Shown here: piece by piece, positions 34,902 to 55,501 of the stretch | Layout of the letters: each line of letters begins with the position of its first letter | Numbering within the stretch: the first letter of the stretch is position 1 | Program-made: the position numbers and the translations under genes | Virus record (IMG/VR): IMGVR_UViG_2671180984_000014 | Length of the DNA: 64,000 nt | From: a virus | Lineage: Duplodnaviria > Heunggongvirae > Uroviricota > Caudoviricetes | Reading direction: 5' to 3' (one strand) | Notes under the pieces: model-generated | Database searches by the model: none | Told to the model about the DNA's origin: nothing | What the model saw: the letters and a program-made list of their open reading frames with translations, nothing else

Positions 34902-34904
34902 ATA

Positions 34905-34921
34905 TTTGCTCTAATAAATTG
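34905..34921 (+). promoter_or_regulatory. C1 operator-like site
   Basis: TTTGCTCTAATAAATTG, 15/17 match. Confidence 0.5.
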
Positions 34922-35262
34922 TGTTTTTTAGCTACCGATGTTACATTGAACCTGACCTCTTGCGCCTTGAGGCATTTTCGGTTTATGCTTATCAGGCACC
35001 TCATTAAAACGGGTGCCGGGATTGGCCTCCCGCTTAAGTCTAAGGCGATACAGACGCCGCTCGCGTCTTTTTTTGTATCGGCGTACACGCACACCTCTAC
35101 AATGGTGGGCTGTATGGGGCTACCTTCGGGTAGGCTGGTTACCTTGGACGCCAGTAAGGCCAACTCCGTACAGTCCACCGCCAGCAAGATTGGTCTCTTC
35201 TGCGGTGGTTACATACCAACGTCTAAGGAGGCTGCCAATATGGCTACTATCCCTACCCCAAC

Positions 35263-36575
35263 TCATCCTGAATTTATCTGGCGCTTTTACTCCTGCCAAA
35301 AACGTCACTATCACTTCGTTATTGCACCAACAGAAGATGAGGCCCGCTCTCAGCTTCCTGACGCCCCATGTATTTTCTCTGCCCGTTTTTCCACTGATTC
35401 ACGCAATTCTCTCAGTTACTGGTGCCTCCCTGTTAACGCTTCTGCTCAGGAGGGACTATGAGAACGTCATTAGTCACCCGTGAAGAGATGATCGAGGCAA
35501 TTGAACAGCACACTGCCTGTATCAGTACCAGGGATATACCAGGCGTTATTGCCAACTACTTCATGATCACCAAACAACTTTACCGGAGAAAGGACAAGAA
35601 CGCGGTTCACCGTATCCTGTTGTCTGATATCCGCGAATACCTGCTCGAACAGGGTCATCTGAATTACGCAACCGTCGCAGCCGAAGCACGCAAGGAGGCA
35701 CACAGAATGAAAGCAACTAACGTTAAATCAGAAAAAATTCATGCACCTTCAGTTCAGGAATCGGAGCTGGTGGTTGTTCAGAATCAGTCTGATGAAATTC
35801 CCGTTCTGGAATGGCAGGGAGTGCGTGTAGTGACAACCGAGACTCTTGCTAGAGGGTATGGGACAGAAACAATCCGTATTCGCCAAAATCATCATGAGAA
35901 CAAAGTACGCTTTGTTGAAGGGAAGCACTTTTTCAAAGTTGAAGGAGAATCATTGCGCGAGTTGAAGCACAGAGTAGCTTTAAACTACTCTGTAAAAATT
36001 GCTCGCAATGTTCGCTCACTCCCCTCTGGACAGAACGCGGCGCAGCCCGCCACGCTAAAATGCTCGAAACCGATCAGGCATGGGCATTCTTTGAAAAACT
36101 GGAAGACAGCTACTTCCGACAAAAAGAACAGCAACCGATCGCAATCCCCCAGACGCTTCCTGAAGCCCTACGCCTGGCTGCCGAACTGGCTGAACAAAAG
36201 CAACTTCTGGAACAGAAAGCCCACCAGCTAAATCAGCAGCTGGTGGCCGCCGCTCCTAAAGTCGATTTTGCCGACCGGGTATCAGTAGCTAAAGGGATCC
36301 TGATTGGGAATTTTGCAAAGGTTGTTGGACTTAAGCAAAACGCGCTGTTTGTCTGGTTACGGGAGAACGGCATCCTGATAGCGTCCGGTGGACGTAAAAA
36401 TGTGCCGTTCCAGCAGTACATCAACGCGGGGTATTTCACGGTGAAAGAAGTGGTGCTGGATGATGAAGATGGCTACCAGATACGGTTGACGCCTCAATTA
36501 ACGGGTAAAGGCCAGCAGTGGTTGACGCGTAAACTGCTCGATGCTGGCTTGTTAAAACCGGTGGCAGCTGAATAA
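35263..36575 (+). repeat. inverted-repeat copy A of icd-ant module (partner 53821-55142)
   Basis: about 1.3 kb near-identical to reverse complement of 53821-55142; identity begins inside icd coding sequence and ends at ant stop codon. Confidence 0.8.
35458..36575 (+). pseudogene. antirepressor ant, frameshifted copy
   Basis: same protein as intact 372-aa copy at 53821-54939 but one base missing (CACTCCCCTCTGG here vs CACTCACCCTCTGG there) splits it into 257- and 171-aa frames; no C1 operator or icd start upstream. Confidence 0.7.
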
Positions 36576-36607
36576 TGGAAGAATGCCCGGTTGATGCCGG
36601 GCATAAT

Positions 36608-37459
36608 TTATTGCGCGCTTTCGGGGGTGTCGTTTACTGGCTGCCCCTTCTTGGTTTTACGGCTGCGCGTAACTGATGCGGCTGACTTAACCTTTTTCTC
36701 TTCGCGAGTGATGGCAATTTGTTTTTTTACATTTTCAATATCTGCCAGGCGATATATTTTTGCTTGCGGCCAGCGGTCGCAGATGATCGGTTCTATGGAG
36801 TCATAAAGGCTAAATTTTGCTTTTTCGAATTCACCGTTGATGATAATTCCATCACGGAGAGTTTCATCGCAGATAAACACGCCACACAGTGGCACATGGT
36901 AACTAACTGATTTACCATCATTGTAGTTAGGGCTACTGGAAATGTAGTGGACGCGCAGCATTGTTTCGCTAAAGCCGTGTACGCGCATACGGAATTTTTC
37001 ATCCTCCGGGTACTGCTTCATTAGCTCTTTTGTTGCTTCCAGGTTCTCTATGTATTTCGCACTGTGCTCATTGATCCCCGCGCTTTTTTGGATGCGAATG
37101 TCCTTATCAATCAGATGAATAATGCGGCCAGCGGTCATGTTGACGCTGTTCACAGCTTCTGTCTGATAAGTTGTAACCTTACGCACACCGCGAAGGATGT
37201 TAGGCACTGGATATAAAATAGTCTTTGGGATATTGAGGTCTGGGTACTGTTCCAGTTCCCGCGCCATTAAAGTCCATTTATCAATTTCAGCCTGAATGCT
37301 GTCAGTTTCTTTGAACGGTAGAACGACAACCGGGCGTACAGGACGACCGTCGCTGGCTGTATCAACGTGTTGGGCGCGTGCAACAGCTTTTTTTAGAAAG
37401 AGATCCCTGAAGCTGACGAACTCCTGGTACAGTTGTTCGCCGTAGACATAATTTATCAT
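36608..37459 (-). CDS. c1: C1 repressor of lysis
   Basis: 283 aa MINYVYGEQLYQEFVSFRDLFLKKAVARAQHVD... recognised as P1 C1. Confidence 0.95.
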   Translation of the reverse strand: MINYVYGEQLYQEFVSFRDLFLKKAVARAQHVDTASDGRPVRPVVVLPFKETDSIQAEIDKWTLMARELEQYPDLNIPKTILYPVPNILRGVRKVTTYQTEAVNSVNMTAGRIIHLIDKDIRIQKSAGINEHSAKYIENLEATKELMKQYPEDEKFRMRVHGFSETMLRVHYISSSPNYNDGKSVSYHVPLCGVFICDETLRDGIIINGEFEKAKFSLYDSIEPIICDRWPQAKIYRLADIENVKKQIAITREEKKVKSAASVTRSRKTKKGQPVNDTPESAQ

Positions 37460-37553
37460 TGATCCTCCTCCAGAATTGACATGGTCAATAACGCCCGGCT
37501 GAGAAAACCGGTCATTACTGACCTATATTATAGAGGGATCAAACAAAAATAAT

Positions 37554-37570
37554 AGATTTATTAGTGCATT
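37554..37570 (-). promoter_or_regulatory. C1 operator-like site between c1 and coi
   Basis: reverse complement AATGCACTAATAAATCT, 3 mismatches. Confidence 0.45.
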
Positions 37571-37779
37571 TATTGTGAGTCTAACTGGTTAGTTGCCATG
37601 AGATATTCGATTGTGTCAGTGAGGTCATCCAGGTCGTCTTGGGTGATGCGGTACTCCTGATTGGATATCTTTGAGTAGTGTTCAGCAATGGCGCGGGCAG
37701 CGTCGGTTTCGGCAGGGTCTACAGATAAAGCGTTAGAGCAATGTCTAACGTCGTCGATGGTTGGTTGAATGAAAGCCAT
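37570..37779 (-). CDS. coi: C1 inactivator Coi
   Basis: 69-aa acidic ORF immediately upstream of c1 on same strand. Confidence 0.8.
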   Translation of the reverse strand: MAFIQPTIDDVRHCSNALSVDPAETDAARAIAEHYSKISNQEYRITQDDLDDLTDTIEYLMATNQLDSQ

Positions 37780-38017
37780 AATTATGCCTCACTGTATTGA
37801 CAACACAGAGCCTGAAGCTCTGACCTACTGTTTCACCCATGATCCATGCTGGGGTAATCTAACAACATTGCGCTGTGTGTAAGATGAGCAATGCATAGCT
37901 GTAATGCCGTTGTATAAGGTTTCCCTGTTTGCTCATTTCCTTCTGAGCCGCTCTACAACGCTGAAGACACATTAAATAGTGAATCCAAAGTCGTATTACG
38001 TAACGACGGCAAAACTA

Positions 38018-38117
38018 TAATTTATTAGAGCAATTGTCAAACAACTATGAAAAACAATCCAGTTTTTAGCTGGTGGAGTGGGATTTTTCTCTCTAAATTT
38101 ATTGCTCTAATAATTCT
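38018..38117. promoter_or_regulatory. c1 promoter region with two C1 operators
   Basis: reverse-strand ATTGCTCTAATAAATTA (38018-38034) and forward ATTGCTCTAATAATTCT (38101-38117) between coi upstream region and loxP. Confidence 0.6.
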
Positions 38118-38160
38118 TGATTTTTGTGCGCAGCTGGACGTAAACTCCTCTTCGGATCTG

Positions 38161-38194
38161 ATAACTTCGTATAGCATACATTATACGAAGTTAT
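38161..38194 (+). other. loxP: loxP recombination site
   Basis: exact ATAACTTCGTATA-GCATACAT-TATACGAAGTTAT: 13-bp inverted repeats around canonical 8-bp spacer. Confidence 0.98.
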
Positions 38195-38265
38195 CTTAAG
38201 GGTTATTGAACATGATTAATTTACCTGTAAATCCATACAGTTCAATACCTTATCAGGTCAAATAG

Positions 38266-38287
38266 TGATCACTTGATCATTTGATCA
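38266..38287 (+). promoter_or_regulatory. GATC cluster (Dam-methylation-sensitive promoter region upstream of cre operon)
   Basis: GTGATCACTTGATCATTTGATCAAGG, three GATC within 22 bp. Confidence 0.5.
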
Positions 38288-38383
38288 AGGTTGCGCTACG
38301 TAAAATCTGCGAAATGTTGGCAGTGTTAGTGCTCCAGATTTCGCGTAGCGCACTTAGCACCACCAATCAATCAGAGGTGAAAA

Positions 38384-38605
38384 ATGGGATATTCAGCTGC
38401 TAAAGTGTCCACTCATCTTGAGCTTGAGAAAAACCGTGGTTACTGGCGGGCAAAATGGTTTGAGCGTGATAGTTACCAACTGTCATTATCTCGCGGTGAA
38501 GAGAAAATAGAACGCACGCGCGGTCGCTGGCGTTTCTATGACGAGAACCATAACCAGGTAAAGGCAGAGCCAATCCTGTACACTCTGCTGAAAACAATAA
38601 TTTAA
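38384..38605 (+). CDS. hypothetical protein between loxP and cre
   Basis: 73-aa ORF with GAGGTG RBS. Confidence 0.45.
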   Translation: MGYSAAKVSTHLELEKNRGYWRAKWFERDSYQLSLSRGEEKIERTRGRWRFYDENHNQVKAEPILYTLLKTII

Positions 38606-38624
38606 CTTGATCATGAGGTGATGA

Positions 38625-39020
38625 ATGTTTAATGGCCTGACAGATGCCAAGGTAAACGCCTTACTGAACGACGCAAAACAAAAAGCTGCTAACCCTGGAA
38701 CGAATGAAAATGAACGTGCTATGGCTGTTGCAATTTGGGAGTTAGCAGAAGAAGTAAAGCGAAACCGCTTACTATACACTCGGGTTTACCAGCAATTTGA
38801 TGGTGCGAGCTGGATAGATATCGAAGAGGCTGAATATGCAACATGCAAAAAAGAAAAAAAGATTGTTCGGATTTTGCATAAAGCAGCAACCCCAATCACT
38901 GTAGAAATCCCCGATCACAGATATTTCGAGAACGATGATCTACCAGGGGATGTGATTCGAATTATTGATGAGATACTTCATGAACAAGGCTTAACTGTTA
39001 AAATCACGCATAATAAATGA
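38625..39020 (+). CDS. hypothetical protein, translationally coupled to cre
   Basis: 131-aa ORF with GAGGTG RBS; stop overlaps cre ATG (ATGA). Confidence 0.45.
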   Translation: MFNGLTDAKVNALLNDAKQKAANPGTNENERAMAVAIWELAEEVKRNRLLYTRVYQQFDGASWIDIEEAEYATCKKEKKIVRILHKAATPITVEIPDHRYFENDDLPGDVIRIIDEILHEQGLTVKITHNK

Positions 39021-40048
39021 CTAATTCGTTAACCGTTCACCAAAATTTGCCTGCATTGCCGGTCGATGCAACGAGTGATGAGGTTCGCAAGAACCTGATG
39101 GACATGTTCAGGGATCGCCAGGCGTTTTCTGATCATACCTGGAAAATGCTTCTGTCCGTTTGCCGGTCGTGGGCGGCATGGTGCAAGTTGAATAACCGGA
39201 AATGGTTTCCCGCAGAACCTGAAGATGTTCGCGATTACCTTCTATATCTTCAGGCGCGTGGTCTGGCAGTAAAAACTATCCAGCAACATTTGGGCCAGCT
39301 AAACATGCTTCATCGTCGGTCCGGGCTGCCACGACCAAGTGACAGCAATGCTGTTTCACTGGTCATGCGACGGATCCGAAAAGAAAACGTTGATGCCGGT
39401 GAGCGTGCAAAACAGGCGCTGGCGTTCGAACGCACTGATTTCGACCAGGTTCGTTCACTCATGGAAAATAGCGATCGCTGCCAGGATATACGTAATCTGG
39501 CATTTCTGGGGATTGCTTATAACACCCTGTTACGTATAGCCGAAATTTCTAGGATCAGGGTTAAAGATATCTCACGTACTGACGGTGGGAGAATGTTAAT
39601 CCATATTGGCAGAACGAAAACGCTGGTTAGCACCGCTGGTGTAGAGAAGGCACTTAGCCTGGGGGTAACTAAACTGGTTGAGCGATGGATTTCTGTCTCT
39701 GGTGTAGCTGATGATCCGAATAACTACCTGTTTTGCCGCGTCAGAAAAAATGGTGTTGCCGCGCCATCATCCACCAGCCAGCTATCAACTCGCGCCCTGG
39801 AAGGGATTTTTGAAGCAACTCACCGATTGATTTACGGGGCAAAAGATGACTCTGGTCAGCGATACCTGGCCTGGTCTGGACATAGTGCCCGTGTCGGTGC
39901 CGCGCGAGATATGGCCCGCGCCGGAGTTTCAATACCGGAGATCATGCAAGCTGGTGGCTGGACCAACGTAAATATTGTCATGAACTACATTCGTAACCTG
40001 GATAGTGAAACGGGGGCAATGGTGCGCCTGCTGGAAGATGGCGATTAG
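39017..40048 (+). CDS. cre: Cre site-specific tyrosine recombinase
   Basis: 343 aa, near-identical to P1 Cre as recalled (TVHQNLPALPVDATSDEVRKNLMDMFRDRQAFS ... RLLEDGD); adjacent to loxP. Confidence 0.97.
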   Translation: MTNSLTVHQNLPALPVDATSDEVRKNLMDMFRDRQAFSDHTWKMLLSVCRSWAAWCKLNNRKWFPAEPEDVRDYLLYLQARGLAVKTIQQHLGQLNMLHRRSGLPRPSDSNAVSLVMRRIRKENVDAGERAKQALAFERTDFDQVRSLMENSDRCQDIRNLAFLGIAYNTLLRIAEISRIRVKDISRTDGGRMLIHIGRTKTLVSTAGVEKALSLGVTKLVERWISVSGVADDPNNYLFCRVRKNGVAAPSSTSQLSTRALEGIFEATHRLIYGAKDDSGQRYLAWSGHSARVGAARDMARAGVSIPEIMQAGGWTNVNIVMNYIRNLDSETGAMVRLLEDGD

Positions 40049-40098
40049 CCGTTCATTTTTACTTGATTGCTCTAATTATTTGATATTTATGGTGACAC

Positions 40099-40410
40099 AT
40101 GCGGAAGGATTTCAAAATAGACGGAAAATATGTGGTGCTGTCTGTAAGCTCTCAAATTCAGTCACCATCTGTCATTGTCACCGTAAAATTGAGCGATAGG
40201 ATGCCTGATATCGACTCGATATCTGTTGCGTTCCCCGTTAAAAGCATGCGGAGTGCTGAACATTTTGTGATGAATGCAACGGAGGAGGAAGCGCGGCGAG
40301 GGCTTACTAGAGTGATGGCGGAATTTGGCGAACTCCTGGGTAAGGTAAACAATGCCCTTTCAATCAGTTCAGCAAGATCCAAAGCGTTAACAGCTTCCAT
40401 GATGAAATAA
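40099..40410 (+). CDS. cra: hypothetical protein downstream of cre (cra position)
   Basis: 103-aa ORF. Confidence 0.45.
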   Translation: MRKDFKIDGKYVVLSVSSQIQSPSVIVTVKLSDRMPDIDSISVAFPVKSMRSAEHFVMNATEEEARRGLTRVMAEFGELLGKVNNALSISSARSKALTASMMK

Positions 40411-40413
40411 AAA

Positions 40414-40436
40414 AGCCTGGCAAGGAGCCAGGCTGC
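40414..40436. terminator. hairpin terminator, T-run on minus strand
   Basis: GCCTGGC-aagga-GCCAGGC preceded by A-run on plus strand, i.e. oriented to stop minus-strand transcription. Confidence 0.4.
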
Positions 40437-40540
40437 ACAAAAGAGCGGGTTTGTATTCCGCATCCAATCAATCAAGAAAGAGTATAGCACACAGGTACTG
40501 AAGTGAAAAAATGTGATTCTCGATTAACAAAATATCTACC

Positions 40541-40557
40541 ATTGCTCTAATTGATTG
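40541..40557 (+). promoter_or_regulatory. C1 operator-like site upstream of ref
   Basis: ATTGCTCTAATTGATTG followed by overlapping ATTGCTATAATTGAG. Confidence 0.5.
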
Positions 40558-40655
40558 CTATAATTGAGCCGCAGTTTTTGTCAACTACGAAGACGTTGCC
40601 ATTACTTAACTCCTTGACATCATTGGCGGCCATTAGGCCGCCTTTTTTTTGCCAT

Positions 40656-41216
40656 ATGAAAACAATCGAACAAAAACTTGAACAGCGCCGCGAGTGGCAG
40701 AAGGCAGCCAGAGAACGAGCGATCGCTCGGCAACGGGAAAAGTTGGCTGACCCCGCCTGGAGAGAATCGCAATATCAGAAAATGCGGGATTCTATCGACC
40801 GCCGTATCGCTAAACAGAAAGAGCGCCCACCAGCCAGCAAAACGCGGAAAAGCGCGGTAAAAATAAAATCTCGTGGCTTGAAGGGGAGAACACCAACGGC
40901 GGAGGAACGGCGCATCGCCAATGCTCTTGGCGCTCTCCCCTGCATTGCCTGCTATATGCATGGAGTAATATCTAATGAGGTGTCTCTGCACCATATCGCC
41001 GGTCGTACCGCGCCGGGTTGTCATAAAAAGCAATTGCCACTTTGTAGATGGCACCACCAGCATGCAGCTCCGGCTGAAGTAAGAGAAAAATACCCATGGC
41101 TGGTCCCTGTTCATGCCGATGGTGTGGTTGGAGGCAAGAAAGAATTCACCTTGCTGAACAAGTCAGAGATGGAGTTACTGGCTGATGCCTATGAGATGGC
41201 AAACATCATGCACTAA
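40656..41216 (+). CDS. ref: Ref recombination-enhancement HNH endonuclease
   Basis: 186 aa from ATG 40656 (MKTIEQKLEQ); HNH-like core CIACYMHGVISNEVSLHHI...H; C1 operator upstream. Confidence 0.8.
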   Translation: MKTIEQKLEQRREWQKAARERAIARQREKLADPAWRESQYQKMRDSIDRRIAKQKERPPASKTRKSAVKIKSRGLKGRTPTAEERRIANALGALPCIACYMHGVISNEVSLHHIAGRTAPGCHKKQLPLCRWHHQHAAPAEVREKYPWLVPVHADGVVGGKKEFTLLNKSEMELLADAYEMANIMH

Positions 41217-41377
41217 TAAATATATTATTTTTAATGATAAATGATTGACAACTGACAAGTGACTTCAGTCAGAATCATCACACGCCCGGTACGGATGGAT
41301 CCCTTTTCAAATATTCCATGGACGGCACAGTCTGAGTACCGGGCGCTACCTTCAGTTGTATTGCTAAGCCGCCGCTG

Positions 41378-42046
41378 GTGGCTTTTCTTTTTTGTAGGGG
41401 CGCTATGGATAAGAAAATATGCGTTGTTTCAATGAGCGTCGGCAAACCGGCGTCAATGACTGCTGCATGGATCAACAATGAGCTGATCATGGCTGAGCGG
41501 ACCAGCTACCCTGAACGCCGCCGCGATATGGAACTCCAGCTGCTGCGCGAATTGCGAGAAAAAGAGGAAAAGGGTTTTATCGTGCTGGTGGAAGAGGAAA
41601 ACAGCTTTATTACCGGTCGAGTTGGCCAGCGTGTAAGGTTGCGTGATCCCTTCATGAACGGCAGACCGGTACTGATTGAAGCAATGCAGATTTACAAGGA
41701 ATTGGAACGCCAGAAAGCGATCAAGTTACCGCGCAAGGAATCCGGCAAATACATCCTTCACCAAAGCATCTTCGATTCCGAACACGATAAAAAAGGCGAT
41801 GAATTTTTCAACATCAACTGGAGCGAAATAACGACAGAACATGTTCTGACGTTACTATGTTGCTTTGCGACGGAATACAACAACGTTGCCAGCGCCGACT
41901 ACATCAGGGCAATGGCTGGAGAAGTTGAGGCCCGCCAGGAGCCATCGTTACTAAGCCCTCTGATTAACATAATTCGCGGAACCCAAACGCTGGCACAAAA
42001 ACGGGTGCCGAAAGGGGAATTAACAGGAAAAGGAAATTATCTATAA
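41378..42046 (+). CDS. hypothetical protein (mat position)
   Basis: 222-aa ORF downstream of ref; start uncertain (alt ATG 41405). Confidence 0.4.
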   Translation: MAFLFCRGAMDKKICVVSMSVGKPASMTAAWINNELIMAERTSYPERRRDMELQLLRELREKEEKGFIVLVEEENSFITGRVGQRVRLRDPFMNGRPVLIEAMQIYKELERQKAIKLPRKESGKYILHQSIFDSEHDKKGDEFFNINWSEITTEHVLTLLCCFATEYNNVASADYIRAMAGEVEARQEPSLLSPLINIIRGTQTLAQKRVPKGELTGKGNYL

Positions 42047-42102
42047 ACGTCAATGCATTAGGGTATACTTCTCCATAGAACTATAAGTAAATGGAGTAAG
42101 TA

Positions 42103-43410
42103 ATGAGCGAATATGTTGAGTTAGCATACGCTGCCGCTACAAGCAGGCTTTGTCTATTTACCGGGACTGGCTTTTCAAAGGCAGTCTCGAACGGCGAAGC
42201 ACCAACGTGGAAAGAACTATTAAAAAAAGTTTGCAGCAAAGTTCACAACGCCAAACAGTTGGAAGACACGTTATTCCCTGATGATAAACCACCAGCACTG
42301 AGTCTTGAAGAAGCCGCACAGATACTATCTTTGAAGCTCAACATTGAAGGCAAGTCGATTTATGATGAAATTGTTGACATCATATCTCCAATACAACTTG
42401 GCGAAGATATATCAAATATAAAGGATTTTTTTCAAAAAAGAACATTTCGTGTCATTACAACGAATTATGACAAGTTAGCTGAATACTTAACTGGAGATGA
42501 GGAGGTTCAGTCTATTACCCCAGGCTTACCTATTCCTAAATATCCCTCCAAAGTTAAAATATATCATGTCCATGGTTCTATTGACTCTCCACAAAACATG
42601 ATTGTTACATCAGAAGACTATTTTAGGTTTATAAACTCCGACACTTATTTCTCTCGAAAACTTAGCACGATGCTGCATGAAAATACAGTTGCGATATTAG
42701 GCTATTCTTTAAGCGACACGAACCTAAAAGCAATTATAAATGATTACAAAATATTCTCGAAAGGTAACGCTCTGTGCTCTAATATATTTTTCATCTCTCG
42801 CAGTGAAGTAAGTCAAGATATGAAGGATTATTATTTTTATTGTTTTGGAATACGAGTAATTGACAACACCGAAATAGACTCTTTCTTTAAGAGATTGAGC
42901 ATTAACATAATGTTAATTGAAGGCGTCATAGCAAGAGCCAGACAAAGTATAAAAAGAGTTTTATCAGGCACTTTCAACTATAAGGATGAATACCTTAGAT
43001 TAGAAGATTCATTCTATCAAATAACCTCCTCGATTATATCTGAGGGTTTCGACTGGAATGACGGACAAGTAGTTGATTTTTTCAAGAGAATAATAAAACA
43101 AAAAAGAGATTTAACAAGAGAGAGTGGTGCTTGGGAGCAATACGAGCAGCTTGCAAAATGGCTTATATATTTCGGCAGCCTTTTAGAAATTGGTGGAACT
43201 AAGTATGAAAATGAATATTTAGACGCCGTTGAATACTCAATGTCCAACATGAGCAAAGAAATGAGATTAGGTTATTCGTGGCATGCTTATAGAGCTTGGG
43301 AAACAAGATGGTCCACAATCATTGCTTCAAATCGATTAATAATAAAAAAACGCATCGAAGAAATTGGCGTACTGGAGGATGCTAATTCTATAGTAAAAGA
43401 TATAGTGTAA
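42103..43410 (+). CDS. SIR2-like domain protein with unknown C-terminal domain (candidate defence/abortive-infection effector)
   Basis: 435 aa; N-terminal ordered motifs LFTGTGFSKA, RVITTNYDKLAE, IYHVHGS characteristic of SIR2/sirtuin NAD-binding fold; AT-rich; GGAG RBS; occupies the P1 res-mod slot. Confidence 0.75.
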   Translation: MSEYVELAYAAATSRLCLFTGTGFSKAVSNGEAPTWKELLKKVCSKVHNAKQLEDTLFPDDKPPALSLEEAAQILSLKLNIEGKSIYDEIVDIISPIQLGEDISNIKDFFQKRTFRVITTNYDKLAEYLTGDEEVQSITPGLPIPKYPSKVKIYHVHGSIDSPQNMIVTSEDYFRFINSDTYFSRKLSTMLHENTVAILGYSLSDTNLKAIINDYKIFSKGNALCSNIFFISRSEVSQDMKDYYFYCFGIRVIDNTEIDSFFKRLSINIMLIEGVIARARQSIKRVLSGTFNYKDEYLRLEDSFYQITSSIISEGFDWNDGQVVDFFKRIIKQKRDLTRESGAWEQYEQLAKWLIYFGSLLEIGGTKYENEYLDAVEYSMSNMSKEMRLGYSWHAYRAWETRWSTIIASNRLIIKKRIEEIGVLEDANSIVKDIV

Positions 43411-43461
43411 TTGAAGAGCGGCAAAAATTTAACGGGCAGCTACAACTGCCCGATATATAAA

Positions 43462-43710
43462 TCAATCCGCATTCAGGAGCAATGCGTTATCTATGATGAT
43501 CTGTTCCCATTCTTCGAATGCCCGGTCGCGGACGCCCTGGGGAACGCTGTTAGTTTTGAAATCGACGACCGTCCGCCATTTCCCGTCCGGACGGTACATG
43601 CGCAGAGCTTTACTTCCCCCTTCCCTGCGCACCTCAACGTTATGCTTGTCAGCAAACTCTTGTAATGCTCGTAGCGTCCCATGCTTTACTGTGTAGTATC
43701 GCTTTTTCAA
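43462..43710 (-). CDS. lxc: Lxc/Bof C1 co-repressor
   Basis: 82-aa basic ORF at conserved position upstream of darB operon end. Confidence 0.65.
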   Translation of the reverse strand: MKKRYYTVKHGTLRALQEFADKHNVEVRREGGSKALRMYRPDGKWRTVVDFKTNSVPQGVRDRAFEEWEQIIIDNALLLNAD

Positions 43711-44147
43711 GTTTTCTCTCCAGCCTGTGCCAAGGCTTCAACTTCCAAATCGTAAGACTCAAACTCATAGTCCTGGTCGTCAACTTCTTCAGGCACTGGC
43801 AGTAAATGCCAGGCTGAGTATATCTGACCATTATCAAAACGCTCCTGGCTGTAGAGCGTCGCGGCTATGAGTGTTAGCGCCGGGCGGTCATAACGGTAAA
43901 TTTTGCGAACGTCACGGTCAACGAGACGACCGAAATTACCATAACCGCGCTCCAGTAATAATTTTTTAATTTCCGGCCAGTATGGGCCATAGCTGCGGTA
44001 CAGGCGGGGATTTTTCAGTAATCGCCCACGTAGCCCTGACAGGAAGAAATCAACGTATTCGTCTTCTGTCTTTCCTAACAACGCCGTACGCAGTACCGCC
44101 TCAAGATATGTTTTATTCGGTTTTATTGTATCAGATAGTGTGGCCAT
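43707..44147 (-). CDS. hypothetical protein upstream of lxc (ulx position)
   Basis: 146-aa ORF overlapping lxc start. Confidence 0.4.
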   Translation of the reverse strand: MATLSDTIKPNKTYLEAVLRTALLGKTEDEYVDFFLSGLRGRLLKNPRLYRSYGPYWPEIKKLLLERGYGNFGRLVDRDVRKIYRYDRPALTLIAATLYSQERFDNGQIYSAWHLLPVPEEVDDQDYEFESYDLEVEALAQAGEKT

Positions 44148-44180
44148 ATTATGCGACGCCCGGCGAACCGGGCGCTCCTG

Positions 44181-47100
44181 TTATGCGTATTGTTGGATGA
44201 CGGCCAGAACGTCCGCCACGTTGTGTTTTGTCTCGATAATCCACCAGTTACCCGGGAAATCGCTGTTCTTCGCCTTCGCTGGCAGCCAGCGAGCGCCGAA
44301 TTTCGCCTTGATTGCGTCTTTCGCACGGAAAAGAACGCCTTTCATGCCTGAGGCTTCCTGAAGCCCAAATACCTCGCCAGCGGCGAATTTTGGTGCGTAC
44401 ATCATCTTCAGGTCGGCGGTGGATACGCGATAATTCAGACCAAGAGACTGAGCTATGCTGGTGGCATCACCCTGTATTGATGATAACTCTTCTTGTTTCT
44501 CGTTTCTGGCGGCAATTTCTTCCTCCGTGATGTTGCCAAGGGCCAGGTTTATCCGATCAGCGTCGGCCTGTTTCTCTTCATCGGTGCGCCCGGCAAGAAC
44601 CGTGTTAATTCTCTGCAATATCTCCACATGATTCTTGCGCATGCTGAGCAATTCCGGCGTAACCTCGTTAAGATCCACCAGCCCAAGGATGGCAAGGTCG
44701 GAAAACATTGATACCAGGTTGTAGGTCATGCGATAGCTGAGTTGACCATAGGCTGATGGCAACTTCACCGCATCCATTTGATAGGCATCCATAAATTTAG
44801 AGCCGTCGTTTACGACATCCGCAATTGCAGGTGTGATTTTCCCTGTGGTGGCGGCCTCCCTGATTGCTGTTACCCACGATTGAGTCAGTGCGGCGACTGC
44901 ATGATTCAGATTGGCTTCCCGTTCTGCTGCGATACGCGCGCTTGCTGCGTCCATTGCCTGCTTGATCTCGGCTTTATTGCTGTAAATGCCAATGGTGCCA
45001 AACTGTGCTGTGGTGATCTCATAATCTGACGCCCGGAACTCATGGGTACCGAAAATGGCATTGGTGACCTCAAGTTCAGAATCCCCGTTACGAGTAGCCC
45101 CCTGGCTTGTTTTCTCCGGCATTCTGGCGATCGCATCCGCTATTTTCTCCTGAATTGCTTCAGGGGATAGCGTATCTCCATATGACGCGATTACATCGCC
45201 ATAATTGGAGCCAAACAGTTCAGTCAGGAATACTTCTGCCAAACGGACCTGGCGGTTATTCCCTTCAGACATCATACCAAGCACCCATTTTGCAATTGAC
45301 GACTTCAGCGCGCCGTCACGGCGATCCGGGTAAACCGCATGCTTCAGTGGGTCCGTATAGGTACCAACAAAATCAATGCTATAGCCTGACTCTGTAGTCT
45401 GAACGCCGTATGAGTCAGTGATTTTGATCATGCCGCGCTGCTGGAAACGGTAGAAATCGTCACAGGAAATGATGTCGTTAATCCCGGCGATGGAGACGCC
45501 ACCACTGATTTTCTGCATAACAGCATCTTCATCGGGAGTTACATCAACCTGTTTATCCAGCGTCTTCACATCCCAGTTACCCGATTTGGTACCTTTGAAG
45601 GTAAAGATAATCTCCACGTCTGCGCGCTGGCTGTCGAAGTCCAGCGACTTAATGCGAACGATATCACCGGCACAATCGTAGTATTGGCCTACACGCCATG
45701 AGCGATCGCCGATAATAAGGAACTCACTCGCATGGTTAACCAGGTCAGGATCAACATCCAGAATGCCTTTATTTATTGCATCCTCCACCAGCGGGCGAAG
45801 GCGTTTGATATCCGTCGCGGCCTTCTGAGTACGGTTCAATAATTTCTCATAGCGGGAGATGGCTTGAGAGATATTAGCCTTGCGCTGAATGGCGCTTTTC
45901 AACGACGCGCGATACTGTGCTAACAACGTACGGTCTGTGTGATGGACGCTACCCCAGCGGGCTTTCCAGTCTGCGTTATCAGCTGCTTTGGCCATTACCG
46001 CCTGTTTGAATTTGGCGACGTCGGCGGTGGTCTTTTCGAGTTCCGCTTTTCTTCGCTCTAATTCAGCGGTAAGCACCTCCACATCCTCACCAGCTGCGTG
46101 CTGCGCCTTGATGTAGTTCTGAAGGTCGATAGTAGCCTGTTCTTTCTGGCGAGCGCGTTGCGCGGCTTTCGCCTTATCCATTTGAACCTGCATCATTGCC
46201 AGACGTTCGCCATCATCCTTAGCGGTATACATCTGCATTTCGATCATATCGTTGGCGTCGGCGTTCTCCATTTCTGACTTATCTGAACGGAGGATATCGG
46301 AGATCCAGCCTGCTTTACGCTTCAGCGTCTTCAGTCGGTATTCATCGAAAGAACCCTTGCCGCAGTAGTAGTGAACGCGAACGCTTGCACGGTTGGAACC
46401 AACTCGGGCACCGCGACCGTTACGCTGTGCGATACTGGCTGGTGTCCATGGCAACGTCAGATGATGGATGTCAGTCGTTCCTCGATGCAGGTTGATACCC
46501 ACCTCTGCCTTTTTGTTGCAGATGATGATCGGAGTCCGGCCCTCCTGGAAGTCGGCAGCAATCTTTTCCAGCCCGCCCAGCGACATTTCATTTTGCTGCG
46601 CGATATAGGCGTCATACAGAGCCATTTGCTCGTTGTATTTCGCTATCTGTGCATCTGTTGGTTCATCCGGTAGCTCTTTCGGCGGTTTAACCGCTTTCAG
46701 TTTCTTACCGGTTTTACCTGCCTCGGCAACCGTCTGAGCATTCAGTATCCCCACCTTTGAAGGTTCAAGGTTAAGAGCATTGCAGATAATGCGCTTGAGC
46801 TTCTGGTGCTGCGTTTTTTCATCGGTGAAGATGATTTGCTTACCTTCCGGGAAAAACTCCTTCAGCGTGGCAATCAGCTTCGCGTATTTGGGCGTAACGG
46901 GGTGAGTTACGGTCTGTTCGTCAATGCCAAACCTGGCCAGGCGCTTATTCACTTCCTGCTCGAACGCTTCCGGAACCTGCAACTGAATAAACTCGCCCTT
47001 ATCTATCAGGGAGTATTGCGATTGCTGCGTGATTGAATCATCACTGTCGTCGTCTTCGCTGGTGGCTTGTTTAGGCAAACTGTCCGCCAGCTGCTGCACC

Positions 47101-50100
47101 GCATCTGCGTACTCCGGCAGGAAACGATAGGTGATCCGGCGATAGTACAGGTCCATGTCAGTACATACGCGGTCCATATCCCTGATTATTGAGAAGATCG
47201 GACGGGCTTTCTCGTGCTCAATCACGCCGTCTTCATTGACCGAGGTCGTTACGCCATTGTTGGCTTTGGCCGCCGCTTCCGCCTGCTGACGCAATTCTTC
47301 ATACGCCGCCAGTTGTTCTTCAGTAAGTGGTGCATCCTGCTGGTGTTCGTCCAGCTCCGGGATCTCCACGGTATCCTTAACGTCTTCCGCCGTTTTAAGC
47401 GTTACCCAGCGATGGAATATACCGCGCAGCGCATCAAGGTTTTCAAAGCCCACCAGCGCCATTTTTTCTTCAACTTCACCGCTGATTTTCTGTACCGTTT
47501 CCAGCCTGGTCTTGCCGAAGAATTTAACGAAGTCATCAGGACCGTAGATCCCCATCTTCTGCCAGTATTCCTTCGGCAGAACATGAGAAAGCATGTTGTA
47601 TGCATCGATCGGGGTGTTAACGACTGGCGTTGCAGTCAGGAGAACCGGCCCGCGCCCGCCATTCTTTTTCATCAGGTACGCGTTTTTGATTGCCATATCC
47701 CGCGCCGATTGCGCCACCGCGCTGGTGGGCAGATAGGCCAGTTGTGACGCTTCGCGACCATTTTTATAGCTATTGCGGTAGTTGTGACCTTCGTCGGCGA
47801 TCACACTATCGAAGCCCATATCCTCAAAGTACGGATACTTCTCTGCTTTTTCGGTACCGGTATCTGAATACTCCGACAATACCCAGCGACGCGCCGCCTC
47901 TTTACGATGGGAGTCGGAATCCATTGCGCTGGCTACGCGCCCGGCGGCAACGAAGTCATAAAGCATGTCTTGTGCATGCTCATCTACGGTGTCATCACGT
48001 AGCGGAATGCGGGCGTATTGTTCTTTGGTAAACACGACTGCACGGTAATTTGAGTGCGGGATCGCGTTCATCCGCGCCGTGATAGTGGCTTCATCTGCCA
48101 GCTTAAGAGCATCGCGCATAACTGGAGTGCCATCAGTACCAAGAACAGGTTTACCGTTCTCATCGAGCACCGGCACCTGGCGAATCTGATCGCCATCCAT
48201 CAGCACATCAAGACCGACGAACAGGTAGTTACTGAATGCCTCTTCACTCAGGAACTCTTTTGCTTCGTAATACCAGTTTTCCAGCACTGCTTTAGGCACT
48301 ACATAAGCAGTACGGGTGGAGCGACCGTTCTCATAGTTGAACGCCTCAAGCGCCAGCGCGGTCGTGGTTTTACCCAGCCCGGTGCCGAAGCCCAGGATGC
48401 CGCGCCCATCTTCGGACAGTCGGCGCACCTCGCTATTCTGGTAATCAAATGGCTGGCGCTTACCGCTTAATCCCTTCAACCCAAGCGGATCGCCAGAGTG
48501 TTCATACGGGATATTGCTATTGAACACATCGTTGTATTTGGCAACCAGCTCATCGTAGCGATCGTGCGTCTTGATCCACTTATTGAACTGGTCCTCAAGC
48601 AGTGCCATCTGCTCGCGGTAGCCGTTCGCCGTCGCGCTATCTTTGCCACCGATACGCGCACCATTGAGATACTTTTCCAGCTGTGCCGGGAACCCGGTCG
48701 CGTTTTCACCTGATTTACGGTCCCACTCGTAGCGGATCTCGCCTGTTTCTTTATCCTTGCGCTGGACGACACCGTATCGGTGCCCGACGAACAGACCATC
48801 ACCACCGTGATAGGTGTCAGAAACCATTTCGTCGCCTTCCAGCTGCACTGACTGCACATAGCGCAGATCCGGATAGCCGTTTTCCTGCAAAAACTCCAGA
48901 ATGACGGAGCGGTCGAACCAACGGCTATTGAGCTTAAAGCGGATATTCTCTGCTGGCGTCTTGATGCGCTTCTCTTCGATCGCTGCCAGCTGATTAAGGA
49001 CGTTGTTCTTTACTGGACCGTCGGGGAGCGTGGCGAGGAATTCCTGTTTTGGAGCCACTATCTCGTTAATGTCGCCGCTGGTGGCGCGGGCGAACGGAAC
49101 AATCCCGCCATACGGTGAAACCGCAATGCCAGGGGTGCTGGCCAATAAATTAAGCAACTCATCATCACTGGCTGGCAGTTCGCCGGTAAACGCAAGGCGG
49201 AAATCATCGAGCTGGATTGGATCGCGAGTGAGATCACTGTAGAGATAACGCAGGGTGTCCTGATAGCTGGTGGAGTCATAACTGGCGCTGGAATCATGCG
49301 TAACCAGTTTTCCTGTCAGCTCGTCAGAAATAGTGCCATCCAGCTTAATTGCACCACGGAAAGCAAACCAGGCGCGCGCACCGCTCCCCGATAATTTCGC
49401 TATCGGACCGCGACCGGGGTTACCAAAACGGTCAATCTCTGCCTGCAAACGGGATACCAGAGAAAGGCGCTGCTGTTCGATTTGTTCAGCACTATGCCCG
49501 GCGGCCTTCATGTCCTGATATTCAATTAACATCCGGCCAATCATCGCCCCGCGATACAAGCGTTCACGGTATTTTTCAGGCTGGCTGTTAATCCAGTCCA
49601 CCAGCTGCACCATATCGTCGCTGATTGATGTGGTGTACTTATCGCGGACATTTGCCATCTGGGTAAATGTCATGCCGAGACGGCCTTCTGTTGTAGTCAG
49701 GTTACGCTGAAGAGCCTCCCAGCTATCCGCGCCATAACTGGCAGCATCGATCTTAAGTTCCTTCCCGGCATCAGCTTCAATCCAGCGACCACCAGCATAT
49801 TTTTGCCATACGCCATTAATCAGGCGCATTTCCCCTTCACCAACAACGTCTGCGGTCGGTGACGGTTCAGCCATATCGAGCAAAGACCAGTCGATACGGC
49901 TTTCGAAACGATGAATCAGCTTCGCTTTAAGAGCCTGGTTATCAATCTGACCGTCGGCACGAACCTCAATACGCCCCCGGAAGCCCTTTTCTTGGGTGCC
50001 ATGAACAAACCGGCGGCCATCCTTTTCAAACCACTTGCCAGAAATAAACGTTGGCCAAAGCACATTTGCTGATTCAAGAGTGCTTTCATCCACCAGGGGG

Positions 50101-50948
50101 ATTTTCTCAGCCATCTCTGCCGGATGTTTGCGCATCAGCACCACATCTACGACCGTACTGGTCCCGTTTGCGTCAAAAGTACCGGTAGGCAAGCGGTGGG
50201 CACCAAGAAATTCTGCTTTCCGTGATAGGCGCAGGCGTAACCGCTTCATGTTTGAACCTGAAACAATGGACGGCGGCACAATCACGCACATGAATCCGCC
50301 TGGCTTTATCTTGTCCAGCATGCGGAGCATGAAGTAAGAACCCATGTCCGTTTCTTCTGCGTAAGGCTTATCGATGTTGCGTGTGTTATCACGACCGCCG
50401 AACGGAACGTTACCCACAACATGGTCGAATGAATCGTTAGGTGTGCTTATAGCCAGCTGTTCGAACGGGGAAATCTGTACGCTGTCTTCCGGGTGTAACA
50501 ACTGGTTTATACGACCGGAAACACTGCTGATCTCAGTCGCAGTCATCACCGTACCAACCGGTTTTGTCTCATTAAAAACGCCGGTGCCCGCCGATGGTTC
50601 CAGAGTGTTACCTACGTCCGCGCCGTAGAGCTTCATGATCTCCCAGACACCTTCAGCGATCGGCTTTGGTGTGTAATATTCGGAGACGGACCCGCCAATG
50701 CCGCCTTCACCGGTGTACCCAGCCAGGATCTGGCGCTGTTCATCTGTCAGTGTCGCGCCGTCCACCAGTGAATTAAGCAAATCTATCGCCTTCTGATTCG
50801 CCTCCCGGCGCAGTCGGTCATAGCTTTTGCCTTCCACCTTTTCCACGCCGTATTTAATCGGCGCTCGGTGAGATGTTATTGCCCTAATGTATTTCAATAT
50901 TTCGCTGACACTTGAACAGCGAAACACCCCCATAGATAGCTTGTTCAT
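44181..50948 (-). CDS. darB: DarB antirestriction protein (methyltransferase-helicase)
   Basis: 2255-aa ORF; N-terminal N6-MTase-like NVPFGG motif, helicase motifs GTGLGKTTTA and VIADEGHNYRN; size equals P1 DarB. Confidence 0.9.
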   Translation of the reverse strand: MNKLSMGVFRCSSVSEILKYIRAITSHRAPIKYGVEKVEGKSYDRLRREANQKAIDLLNSLVDGATLTDEQRQILAGYTGEGGIGGSVSEYYTPKPIAEGVWEIMKLYGADVGNTLEPSAGTGVFNETKPVGTVMTATEISSVSGRINQLLHPEDSVQISPFEQLAISTPNDSFDHVVGNVPFGGRDNTRNIDKPYAEETDMGSYFMLRMLDKIKPGGFMCVIVPPSIVSGSNMKRLRLRLSRKAEFLGAHRLPTGTFDANGTSTVVDVVLMRKHPAEMAEKIPLVDESTLESANVLWPTFISGKWFEKDGRRFVHGTQEKGFRGRIEVRADGQIDNQALKAKLIHRFESRIDWSLLDMAEPSPTADVVGEGEMRLINGVWQKYAGGRWIEADAGKELKIDAASYGADSWEALQRNLTTTEGRLGMTFTQMANVRDKYTTSISDDMVQLVDWINSQPEKYRERLYRGAMIGRMLIEYQDMKAAGHSAEQIEQQRLSLVSRLQAEIDRFGNPGRGPIAKLSGSGARAWFAFRGAIKLDGTISDELTGKLVTHDSSASYDSTSYQDTLRYLYSDLTRDPIQLDDFRLAFTGELPASDDELLNLLASTPGIAVSPYGGIVPFARATSGDINEIVAPKQEFLATLPDGPVKNNVLNQLAAIEEKRIKTPAENIRFKLNSRWFDRSVILEFLQENGYPDLRYVQSVQLEGDEMVSDTYHGGDGLFVGHRYGVVQRKDKETGEIRYEWDRKSGENATGFPAQLEKYLNGARIGGKDSATANGYREQMALLEDQFNKWIKTHDRYDELVAKYNDVFNSNIPYEHSGDPLGLKGLSGKRQPFDYQNSEVRRLSEDGRGILGFGTGLGKTTTALALEAFNYENGRSTRTAYVVPKAVLENWYYEAKEFLSEEAFSNYLFVGLDVLMDGDQIRQVPVLDENGKPVLGTDGTPVMRDALKLADEATITARMNAIPHSNYRAVVFTKEQYARIPLRDDTVDEHAQDMLYDFVAAGRVASAMDSDSHRKEAARRWVLSEYSDTGTEKAEKYPYFEDMGFDSVIADEGHNYRNSYKNGREASQLAYLPTSAVAQSARDMAIKNAYLMKKNGGRGPVLLTATPVVNTPIDAYNMLSHVLPKEYWQKMGIYGPDDFVKFFGKTRLETVQKISGEVEEKMALVGFENLDALRGIFHRWVTLKTAEDVKDTVEIPELDEHQQDAPLTEEQLAAYEELRQQAEAAAKANNGVTTSVNEDGVIEHEKARPIFSIIRDMDRVCTDMDLYYRRITYRFLPEYADAVQQLADSLPKQATSEDDDSDDSITQQSQYSLIDKGEFIQLQVPEAFEQEVNKRLARFGIDEQTVTHPVTPKYAKLIATLKEFFPEGKQIIFTDEKTQHQKLKRIICNALNLEPSKVGILNAQTVAEAGKTGKKLKAVKPPKELPDEPTDAQIAKYNEQMALYDAYIAQQNEMSLGGLEKIAADFQEGRTPIIICNKKAEVGINLHRGTTDIHHLTLPWTPASIAQRNGRGARVGSNRASVRVHYYCGKGSFDEYRLKTLKRKAGWISDILRSDKSEMENADANDMIEMQMYTAKDDGERLAMMQVQMDKAKAAQRARQKEQATIDLQNYIKAQHAAGEDVEVLTAELERRKAELEKTTADVAKFKQAVMAKAADNADWKARWGSVHHTDRTLLAQYRASLKSAIQRKANISQAISRYEKLLNRTQKAATDIKRLRPLVEDAINKGILDVDPDLVNHASEFLIIGDRSWRVGQYYDCAGDIVRIKSLDFDSQRADVEIIFTFKGTKSGNWDVKTLDKQVDVTPDEDAVMQKISGGVSIAGINDIISCDDFYRFQQRGMIKITDSYGVQTTESGYSIDFVGTYTDPLKHAVYPDRRDGALKSSIAKWVLGMMSEGNNRQVRLAEVFLTELFGSNYGDVIASYGDTLSPEAIQEKIADAIARMPEKTSQGATRNGDSELEVTNAIFGTHEFRASDYEITTAQFGTIGIYSNKAEIKQAMDAASARIAAEREANLNHAVAALTQSWVTAIREAATTGKITPAIADVVNDGSKFMDAYQMDAVKLPSAYGQLSYRMTYNLVSMFSDLAILGLVDLNEVTPELLSMRKNHVEILQRINTVLAGRTDEEKQADADRINLALGNITEEEIAARNEKQEELSSIQGDATSIAQSLGLNYRVSTADLKMMYAPKFAAGEVFGLQEASGMKGVLFRAKDAIKAKFGARWLPAKAKNSDFPGNWWIIETKHNVADVLAVIQQYA

Positions 50949-51014
50949 TGGTAATCCTTAACAAGTGACTAGTGTTAAATTCCGTTCAAACACGATGCGA
51001 ATTATTCTAATTAA

Positions 51015-53745
<2,731 letters not shown>

Positions 53746-53756
53746 CCACCAAAAAT

Positions 53757-53815: not shown

Positions 53816-53820
53816 TTTAA

Positions 53821-55491: not shown

Positions 55492-55501
55492 AATGGTTAA
55501 A

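Follow-up and report, generated by a model that had tools for sequence, protein, structure and literature searches.

The immunity of bacteriophage P1 is a textbook system built around one locus, immI, which is known in two heteroimmune alleles, those of P1 and P7. The P1 immI operon consists of the operator Op51/Oc4, the promoters P51a/b, the boxes a1 and b1, the c4 gene, the boxes a2 and b2, and the genes icd and ant1/ant2. As is established for P1 and P7, and in line with the notes of the P1 record, the C4 antisense RNA is processed from the operon's own transcript and pairs with a2/b2, blocking translation of icd and, through translational coupling, that of ant. In P1, Ant1 and Ant2 bind the C1 repressor. 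The present analysis concerns a stretch of 64,000 nucleotides (nt) of the Caudoviricetes record IMGVR_UViG_2671180984_000014 (hereafter the window), in which icd-ant sequences stand at two sites, between pacB and c1 and between pro and lydD/E. The element is very probably a P1-like phage-plasmid that carries two extra immI-type cassettes, A and B, beyond the canonical locus, each of them complete, self-contained and differently keyed, where the key is the pair of C4 recognition loops, a' and b'.

Sequences related to immI have been described at other sites. An ant gene is inserted between pacB and c1 in RCS47 and pTZ20_1P, and region RD-1 of pSvP1 contains icd-ant homologues (Venturini et al. 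2019, PMC6906374). A study of D6-like plasmids reported a second c4-icd region in a single plasmid prophage. In Gifsy-1 of Salmonella, the isrK-orf45-anrP operon has a terminated leader small RNA upstream of a short open reading frame (ORF) and of an antirepressor gene that is silent in translation (Hershko-Shalev et al. 2016, PMC4825925). The short isoform of IsrK activates translation of the read-through mRNA in trans, a mechanism that is known for Gifsy-1 only (PMC4825925).

The two cassettes of the window share a common order of parts, namely a C1 operator, a leader with a1/b1, the C4 RNA, a2/b2 over the icd ribosome-binding site, icd, ant and a terminator (Table 1).

Table 1. Features of cassettes A and B and of the inverted repeat that they share, in window coordinates (aa, amino acids)
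Feature	Position	Strand	Evidence
Cassette A, complete immI-type module, pacB stop to c1 stop	34902..36607 (about 34900-36608)	+	alignment to empty phiW39 site
C1 operator-like site, head of cassette A, TTTGCTCTAATAAATTG	34905..34921	+	2 mismatches to 17-bp consensus
IsrK-like leader RNA of cassette A	34996..35073	+	Rfam RF01394, 60.8 bits (gathering score 50)
C4-A antisense RNA, a' AAGGCCAA, b' UACCUUGGAC	35098..35185	+	Rfam RF01695, 75.9 bits (gathering score 45)
a2 (TTGGTCT, 35190-35196) and b2 (GTCTAAGG, 35221-35228) of cassette A	35190..35231	+	sequence reading
icd-A, full length, 73 aa	35240..35461	+	translation; RefSeq records annotate the same 73-aa Icd-like protein
ant-A, broken by 1-nt deletion after 36021 (codon 188)	35458..36575	+	ORF list, alignment, Pfam
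ant-A N-terminal ORF, 257 aa, truncated ORF6N domain	35458..36231	+	ORF list, Pfam
ant-A C-terminal ORF, 171 aa, KilAC domain	36060..36575	+	ORF list, Pfam
Terminator-like hairpin, ant-A stop to c1 stop, part of inserted cassette	36583..36604	+	terminator scan, insert boundary
Cassette B, complete immI-type module, pro terminator to lydD/E stop	53778..55505	-	alignment to empty site of NZ_AP027178.1
Bivalent (palindromic) C1 operator, head of cassette B	55459..55491		operator scan
Sigma-70 promoter-like site, TTGATC-17-TATAGT	55405..55433	-	promoter scan; aligns with P1 promoter P1c4/P51b
a1/b1 element of cassette B (c4-a1b1)	55359..55411	-	Rfam RF03163, 56 bits (gathering score 46.7)
C4-B antisense RNA, a' CUGUCAA (P1 type), b' CACAAUC (P7 type)	55205..55290	-	Rfam RF01695, 68.4 bits
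a2 (TTGACAG, 55198-55204) and b2 (GATTGTGA, 55168-55175) of cassette B	55168..55204	-	alignment with P1, sequence reading
icd-B, 73 aa, ATGA overlap with ant	54936..55157	-	ORF list, translation
ant-B, intact, 372 aa; ORF6N 116-202, KilAC 260-361	53821..54939	-	ORF list, Pfam
GC-rich terminator hairpin downstream of ant-B, brought in with cassette B	53791..53808		terminator scan, empty-site alignment
Left arm of inverted repeat, icd codon 10 to ant stop	35267..36576	+	repeat search, alignment
Right arm of inverted repeat	53820..55130	-	repeat search, alignment
17.2-kb inter-arm segment: c1, coi, loxP, cre, ref, SIR2-like, lxc-like, darB, prt, pro	36577..53819

A preliminary description of this DNA, made from the sequence alone, had taken the icd-ant copy beside c1 to be truncated, its operator, leader and icd start missing. 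This proved incorrect, as cassette A has a C1 operator match, an IsrK-like leader, a C4 RNA and a full-length icd of its own. The operator match begins three bases past the pacB stop. The leader contains two a1/b1-like boxes, TTGGCCT and GTCTAAGG, which read as complementary to the C4-A loops, and it ends with an intrinsic terminator hairpin (35052-35068; terminator scan) followed by a run of T. The C4-A match spans the full length of the Rfam model, and its sequence is 100% identical in all nine window-type A cassettes examined. Box b2 overlaps the icd Shine-Dalgarno sequence GGAGG, reading GTCTAAGG(AGG). Codons 1-9 of icd-A differ from those of icd-B and codons 10-73 encode an identical protein, and icd-A and ant overlap by their stop and start codons (ATGA). 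In ant-A, the ORF6N domain is parted from KilAC by the frameshift at codon 188, and an intact, KilAC-bearing Ant is found only in cassette B; the truncated Ant-A, with 187 residues and a further 70 out of frame and without KilAC, is probably inactive.

The annotation of related records conceals much of this arrangement. RefSeq/PGAP records carry a coding sequence of about 39 aa, named 'ash family protein', atop the C4-A gene (35098-35221 in the window, 10782-10901 in the relative L001), which must be an RNA gene called in error or else correspond to orf45 of Gifsy-1, and the C4 RNA itself is unannotated in the RefSeq relatives at cassette A. Because annotation hides the C4 RNA, either under this name or by omission, the cassettes look like stray or truncated ant genes. 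An apparent ORF of 187 aa, which would extend into icd from the pacB stop, reflects a mere lack of in-frame stops over the RNA genes.

Cassette B has an operator in which a perfect 17-mer (55475-55491, minus strand) overlaps an inverted partner (55459-55475, plus strand). The C4-B match likewise covers the full length of the Rfam model, whose gathering score is 45, and b2 adjoins the icd Shine-Dalgarno sequence, reading GATTGTGA(GG). The ant-B product and P1 Ant1 have 56% identity, their ends being conserved and the middle part replaced, and codon 84 of ant-B is an ATG with an internal Shine-Dalgarno sequence that aligns with the P1 Ant2 start.

The loop and target positions that define a key were taken from the P1 annotation and compared across cassettes. 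The a' and b' loops are CUGUCAA and CACUAAC in P1, and CUGCUAA and CACAAUC in both P7 and the canonical immI of NZ_AP027178.1. Cassette B of the window has CUGUCAA with CACAAUC, cassette B of NZ_CP013030.1 has CUGUCAA with CAUUCGU, and the RD-1 cassette of pSvP1 has CUGCUAA with CGUAAGU. Cassette A of the window is keyed by AAGGCCAA and ACCUUGGAC, and cassette A of pNJS001-1 by AGUCUCAA and CCUUUGAC. In every one of these cassettes the cassette's own targets bear matching changes, such that a2/b2 are complementary to its own a'/b' loops, and in a loop-only duplex matrix the cognate duplexes on the diagonal are the strongest. Whole-molecule prediction of duplexes between C4 and leader RNA was uninformative, as it unfolds C4, and loop-only comparisons were used instead.

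A scan of IMG/VR with the P1-type C4 scaffold and free key positions returned at least 120 loci; the isolate-derived contigs of this database are redundant, and key counts are lower bounds. These loci hold at least 12 keys, formed from at least two a' and at least seven b' variants. With four targets checked per locus, the recovered a1, b1, a2 and b2 boxes fit their own a'/b' loops with a single exception among the matches listed. The exceptional cassette, one of the loci L018-L137, has the b' loop AUUCGU together with a P1-type b2, GTTAGT, and its own C4 should therefore be unable to pair at b2; it may represent a naturally unlocked, partly constitutive antirepressor or a fresh recombinant. 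Sites with P1-scaffold keys are the canonical locus (many keys), lyz/lydD (at least five loci) and downstream of ref (at least two loci). At least seven contigs carry two to four P1-scaffold cassettes, and among the matches listed the keys within a contig always differ (14 of 14 pairs), an outcome with a chance probability of about 0.14, which is not significant.

A corresponding scan of IMG/VR for A-type cassettes gave 61 loci, most of them between pacB and c1, that belong to two scaffolds. The scaffold of the window has a single key; the second has four keys, in which the b' loops UUUGAC or UUUUGC occur with the a' loops UUCC or UCUC, with matching targets. In total, at least 17 C4 keys, all accompanied by matching targets, occur in P1-like elements, with as many as five cassettes per contig. 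The 97-kb contig IMGVR_UViG_2703718869_000013 (L137, L115, L067, L032) holds four P1-scaffold cassettes with four keys and one A-type cassette, and the contig of locus L151 has two A-type cassettes in tandem, 1.5 kb apart.

Neither cassette of the window lies at the canonical immI position, which in the P1 record is between sim and kilA-repL and for which the corresponding region lies outside the window. The relatives NZ_AP027178.1, which is the closest backbone (99.7% identity over 93% of a 23.6-kb query), and NZ_AP038984.1, which is the closest record with the whole structure from A to B (98.6% over 100% of the query), keep icd-ant-kilA-repL at the canonical site, each with its own C4, and the lineage would thus possess three cassettes. 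Cassette A stands in place of 27 bp in the empty pacB/c1 site of phage phiW39, and cassette B in place of about 19 bp of the empty site of NZ_AP027178.1; alignments to these empty sites revealed no target duplications and no insertion sequence (IS) ends at the boundaries of A or B. In the P1 record, pacAB is under the late promoter LPpac and lyz-lydD/E under LPlyz, both being Lpa-dependent late operons. Cassette A lies at the 3' end of the pacAB operon and cassette B at the 3' end of lyz-lydD/E. Each is co-oriented with its host operon, which is why the two cassettes face each other. Insertion at late-operon ends may provide for late read-through into the cassettes, or these ends may simply be a harmless parking site.

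The inverted repeat formed by the facing cassettes pairs 35267-36576 with 53820-55130 in reverse complement; the global alignment of the two contains 41 substitutions and a single 1-nt indel (about 96.8% identity). A repeat search resolves it into two abutting inverted pairs with a one-base offset, 35267-36024/54373-55130 (758 nt, 99%) and 36022-36576/53820-54374 (555 nt, 94%). Copy A is without the 'A' at position 54375 of copy B, the gap lying directly 3' of position 36021, and the copies differ at this site as CACTCCCCTCTGG versus CACTCACCCTCTGG. Several claims of the preliminary description are borne out here: repeat search and global alignment confirm a 1.3-kb inverted repeat with a second icd-ant copy beside c1, similarity stops at the ant stop codon, and alignment and ORF list agree on a single-base deletion that breaks ant into frames of 257 and 171 aa. 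The pairing of coordinates also stands, with the end of the B arm moved from 55142 to 55130. The arms had been called near-identical, an overstatement for the overall figure, the identity being about 99% in the 5' part and about 94% in the 3' part. The genes listed as bracketed by the repeat were recovered from an exact loxP match at 38161-38194, from Pfam support for Cre, Ref and the SIR2-like protein, and from the annotation of relatives. Both C4 genes lie outside the repeat, and the similarity between A and B begins directly after the stretch of the operon on which C4 specificity depends. The repeat is the exchangeable icd-ant coding part common to two complete, separate cassettes, and as such it is no error and calls for no special explanation.

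The two arrangements differ widely in frequency. Cassette A between pacB and c1 was found in 246 of 816 matching P1-like PLSDB plasmids, as well as in the phages RCS47, JL22 and vB_EcoM-673R5. Cassette B between pro and lyz is present in 11 of 821 P1-like PLSDB plasmids and in none of 28 matching phage records. The two occur together, in the same relative orientation, in pNJS001-1, pAUSMDU00014361_02, the plasmids of 2012C-4227 and 2013C-4081, and NZ_AP038984.1.

Comparison of ant-B with an ant-A repaired in silico gives 32 synonymous and six non-synonymous differences, with a ratio of non-synonymous to synonymous divergence (dN/dS) of 0.05; dS rises from 0.03 in codons 1-188 to 0.25 in codons 189-372. 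The low ratio and the mostly synonymous differences therefore indicate that the copies are diverged functional alleles. In sliding comparisons, the leader of cassette B (55406-55139) matches the canonical immI of NZ_AP038984.1 with 100% identity, and the central icd-ant part reaches up to 100% with the A alleles of NZ_CP013030.1 and NZ_CP027575.1, while the final 100 nt of ant-B have 99% identity to canonical/P1 ant versus 91% to ant-A. Since cassette B is a patchwork of canonical-type and A-type pieces, the cassettes evidently swap segments by homologous recombination. Cassette B of NZ_CP013030.1 carries yet another Ant middle segment.

These observations bear on the suggestion that copy A is a truncated, decaying duplicate, the footprint of a rearrangement that moved immI beside pro. 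Its frameshifted ant and the high identity of the arms would suit such an origin. Against this, copy A retains its own operator, leader, C4, targets and full icd; A is by far the more frequent of the two cassettes; A cassettes elsewhere almost always have an intact ant; the dS of up to 0.25 and the low dN/dS imply that the copies were long separated as working genes; and A and B are clean insertions in a lineage whose closest relatives still hold the canonical immI before kilA-repL. A relic origin is therefore very improbable, and the preliminary description's proposal to that effect was dropped in favour of two independent, complete cassettes.

With regard to the frameshift, the -1 ant-A allele is present in four PLSDB records, and the other 56 among the matches listed are intact at the site. 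Over a stretch of 1,877 nt that spans the deletion, cassette A is matched at 100% identity by seven complete RefSeq assemblies, whose source strains (O157:H7, O26 and O103:H2) were obtained from cattle, beef and humans in the USA, Belgium and Japan. Recurrence in seven independent complete assemblies makes the frameshift real and heritable, yet rare, and it is recent. The notion of an assembly artefact, with a collapsed or duplicated repeat and a sequencing error as frameshift, could draw on the generic risk attached to repeats alone. It has next to no chance of being correct in view of these seven assemblies, of a deletion site without a pre-existing homopolymer, of 42 mainly synonymous arm differences with a codon-position pattern, of unique flanks on each arm that match independent records, and of an A-plus-B architecture found in at least six independent complete assemblies.

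Damage to A-type cassettes is uncommon in general, ant being open in 42 of the 43 IMG/VR A-type cassettes with enough sequence. Pseudogenes of ant inferred from missing or short PLSDB annotations were misleading, as translation yielded intact ORFs of 371-372 aa in L001 and L011-L014. Truly damaged cases among the cassettes translated are limited to the window allele, pO26_10153_1 and pO111_2. The plasmid pO26_10153_1 (L015, NZ_AP027192.1), from a Shiga toxin-producing Escherichia coli, has an independent 2-nt deletion in ant-A with a stop at codon 56 and a 100% conserved C4-A. In pO111_2 (L010, NC_013370.1), insertion of IS1203 removed the operator, C4 and icd of cassette A and left ant. At the IMG/VR locus L187, unrelated coding sequence stands ahead of an A-type icd ribosome-binding site, and C4 is lacking. 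Judging from their sequences, the pO111_2 and L187 cassettes would be free of antisense control.

The damaged alleles raise the question of whether cassette A serves here as a defence-only unit, its antirepressor dead and the cassette kept since C4-A silences incoming A-keyed cassettes. The combination of a broken ant with an intact operator and icd and a fully conserved C4-A is what such a unit would look like, the 2-nt deletion in pO26_10153_1 is a second, independent instance with C4 intact, and the window allele has spread over seven assemblies in O157, O26 and O103 strains. Nevertheless, loss of ant is no general trend, given the intact gene in nearly all IMG/VR A cassettes and in most plasmids; perfect conservation of an 88-nt C4 is weak evidence of constraint against a background identity of 98-99%; and pO111_2 is the opposite case, having lost c4-icd and kept ant. 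A purely defensive role is thus unlikely, although it retains more appeal than a relic or an artefact.

A further possibility is that the inverted repeat serves for, or regularly leads to, inversion by RecA/Ref of the 17-kb segment from c1 through lox, cre and the defence genes to pro, which would create two genome isomers. The arms contain tracts of perfect identity of up to 208 bp, Ref, a RecA-dependent nuclease, is encoded within the segment, and the mosaic cassette B testifies to sequence exchange between cassettes. Both borders of the segment are 3' ends of genes with terminators, no operon would be broken, and the inverted isomer should therefore be viable. However, the arm ends are without sites for a site-specific recombinase, a dedicated invertase is absent, and the arms are coding sequence. 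A synthetic inverted junction was assembled from the pacB end, cassette A up to the ant stop, and the pro side in reverse, and matches of at least 80% coverage were sought; none was found in 817 PLSDB records or in 998 matching records from 5,426 complete E. coli genomes, a search whose power is limited by the dozen or so deposited elements with A and B and by assemblies that report the majority isomer only. The best matches were the two parental junctions, at 78% and 73% coverage, and all six plasmids with A and B that were inspected are in the parental orientation. The inversion raised in the preliminary description is physically possible, and inverted isomers are missing from these collections; as an account of the repeat it is improbable, more so than the defence-only role and less so than a relic.

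The preferred reading, that of complete and separately keyed cassettes, leads to a simple model of control. Each cassette would be controlled autonomously, by C1 at its operator and by its own C4, from one or more promoters placed between the operator and the leader. In a lysogen, the a'/b' loops of C4 would pair with a2/b2 and block icd and, through coupling, ant. Because the keys of A and B differ, each C4 should control only its own cassette, and from complementarity C4-A and C4-B are expected not to cross-react. A cassette expressed without its cognate C4 would supply an Ant that inactivates the C1 repressor. Cassette B could deliver an intact, ORF6N-type Ant, and cassette A would still make C4-A and Icd. 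By analogy with Gifsy-1 IsrK, the IsrK-like leader of A might, through its a1/b1 boxes and terminator, act as a competing partner for C4, which is a speculative role.

Several points weigh against this reading or qualify it. The promoter scan found no threshold-passing promoter in the leader of cassette A, where the candidates are weak consensus matches, and the promoter is placed there from its expected position, for which P1 P51a and the start of IsrK transcription served as models. Expression of either cassette and binding of C1 by an ORF6N-type Ant are predictions from sequence, and the orthogonality of the keys is inferred from base complementarity. The loop-only matrix separates C4-A from its non-cognate targets by only a few kcal/mol, a weak discrimination that arises because any Shine-Dalgarno sequence can likewise pair with the b' loop of C4-A. 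Cassette B of NZ_AP038984.1 has the same key as the canonical immI of that record, equal to that of cassette B of the window, and an extra cassette therefore does not always bring a new specificity. Finally, the canonical immI of this element would lie beyond the edge of the window, its probable presence being suggested by relatives.

A broader interpretation, offered tentatively and with less than even confidence, is that P1-like elements hold a combinatorial repertoire of orthogonally keyed cassettes that serve as weapon and shield among related plasmid prophages. Keys would be built from interchangeable a' and b' loops, and the cassettes parked at the ends of late operons. An invader would defeat the C1 immunity of a resident with any cassette whose key the resident lacks, and a resident would be protected against each key for which it makes its own C4. 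Swaps of payload and key by homologous exchange would leave inverted repeats as a by-product, and a dead ant with a live C4, as in cassette A, would act purely as a shield. P1-like plasmids are common in pathogenic and drug-resistant E. coli and often have several complete cassettes with different antisense keys. Multiple cassettes explain the presence of icd-ant sequences at several sites, and multiple keys provide a concrete, testable account of how P1-like elements invade or resist one another.

Other features of the window are in keeping with a P1-like backbone or add to it. The C1 operator consensus has 19 matches in the window with at most three mismatches, compared with 0.32 expected by chance, and these appear from sequence to map the C1 regulon of the element; close or overlapping matches are located at 4822-4849, 18909-18974 and 38018-38117. 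Rfam identifies tRNA genes at 5504-5575, 5584-5667, 5675-5747 and 7696-7768, a P1-type cluster with presumably one tRNA more than that of P1. A SIR2-like protein (Pfam SIR2_2, 42103-43410) is encoded within the repeat-flanked segment, in the variable region after cre-ref that holds res-mod in P1, and it is likely an anti-phage defence cargo. The longest ORF for lyz in the window (55746-56402) has 218 aa from a TTG; its start in the ORF list is probably too far upstream, as RefSeq relatives annotate 185 aa (558 nt). In relatives, a hok/sok toxin-antitoxin locus lies beside repL, downstream of the canonical immI-kilA-repL (L003, 10409-10583; L007, 10151-10325); such a locus is not known as a feature of P1.

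The open-access literature searched yielded no paper on complete, separately keyed immI cassettes or on keys beyond those of P1 and P7, only passing mentions. The ant gene between pacB and c1 in RCS47 and pTZ20_1P is the same insertion as cassette A, and the RD-1 cassette of pSvP1 shares the A/B-type icd-ant core at 97%. The description of these elements gives two short hypothetical ORFs and ant, and the C4 RNA, operator, targets and key differences are unreported there (PMC6906374). The D6-like plasmids with a second c4-icd region represent a different lineage from that of the window, and keys, payloads and inverted arrangement were unanalysed in that study.

The cassette A leader resembles the Gifsy-1 system in its match to the Rfam isrK model (60.8 bits) and in its terminator. 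In contrast to Gifsy-1, the IsrK-like element is followed by a C4-family RNA and icd, and it resides in a P1-type plasmid prophage under C1. The repeat-flanked segment recalls the C-segment of P1, which is also flanked by inverted repeats and belongs to a genome of like kind. There, Cin works at short cix sites and isomers of the C-segment are readily seen, whereas the arms described here are 1.3 kb of coding sequence, have no dedicated recombinase, and show no isomers in the databases searched.

The closest counterpart of both cassettes remains the immI operon of P1, with which they agree in the order of parts, the 73-aa icd, the ATGA overlap of icd and ant, the nested start of Ant2 and a C-terminal KilAC domain, which in ant-A the deletion leaves in a separate frame; the cassette B leader even aligns base for base with that of P1, and the Rfam families for the C4 RNA and for c4-a1b1 are matched. 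They differ from it in location, as neither cassette precedes kilA-repL or follows sim and both lie at late-operon ends (pacAB, lyz). Cassette A has a different C4 scaffold and an IsrK-type leader, the operator of cassette B is bivalent, and the middle of Ant in A and B is an ORF6N domain that is missing from P1 Ant1, with which the N-terminal 85 and C-terminal 145 residues are shared. The mechanism is thus ordinary; it is the multiplicity of cassettes, the diversity of keys, the IsrK-type leader and the ORF6N-type payload that are under-described. As in P1/P7 heteroimmunity, specificity lies in the a'/b' loops and their matching targets. Cassette B, however, joins a P1 a' loop to a P7 b' loop and the key of cassette A is unrelated to either, and in place of the two classical keys P1-like elements have at least 17, several of which may coexist in one element.

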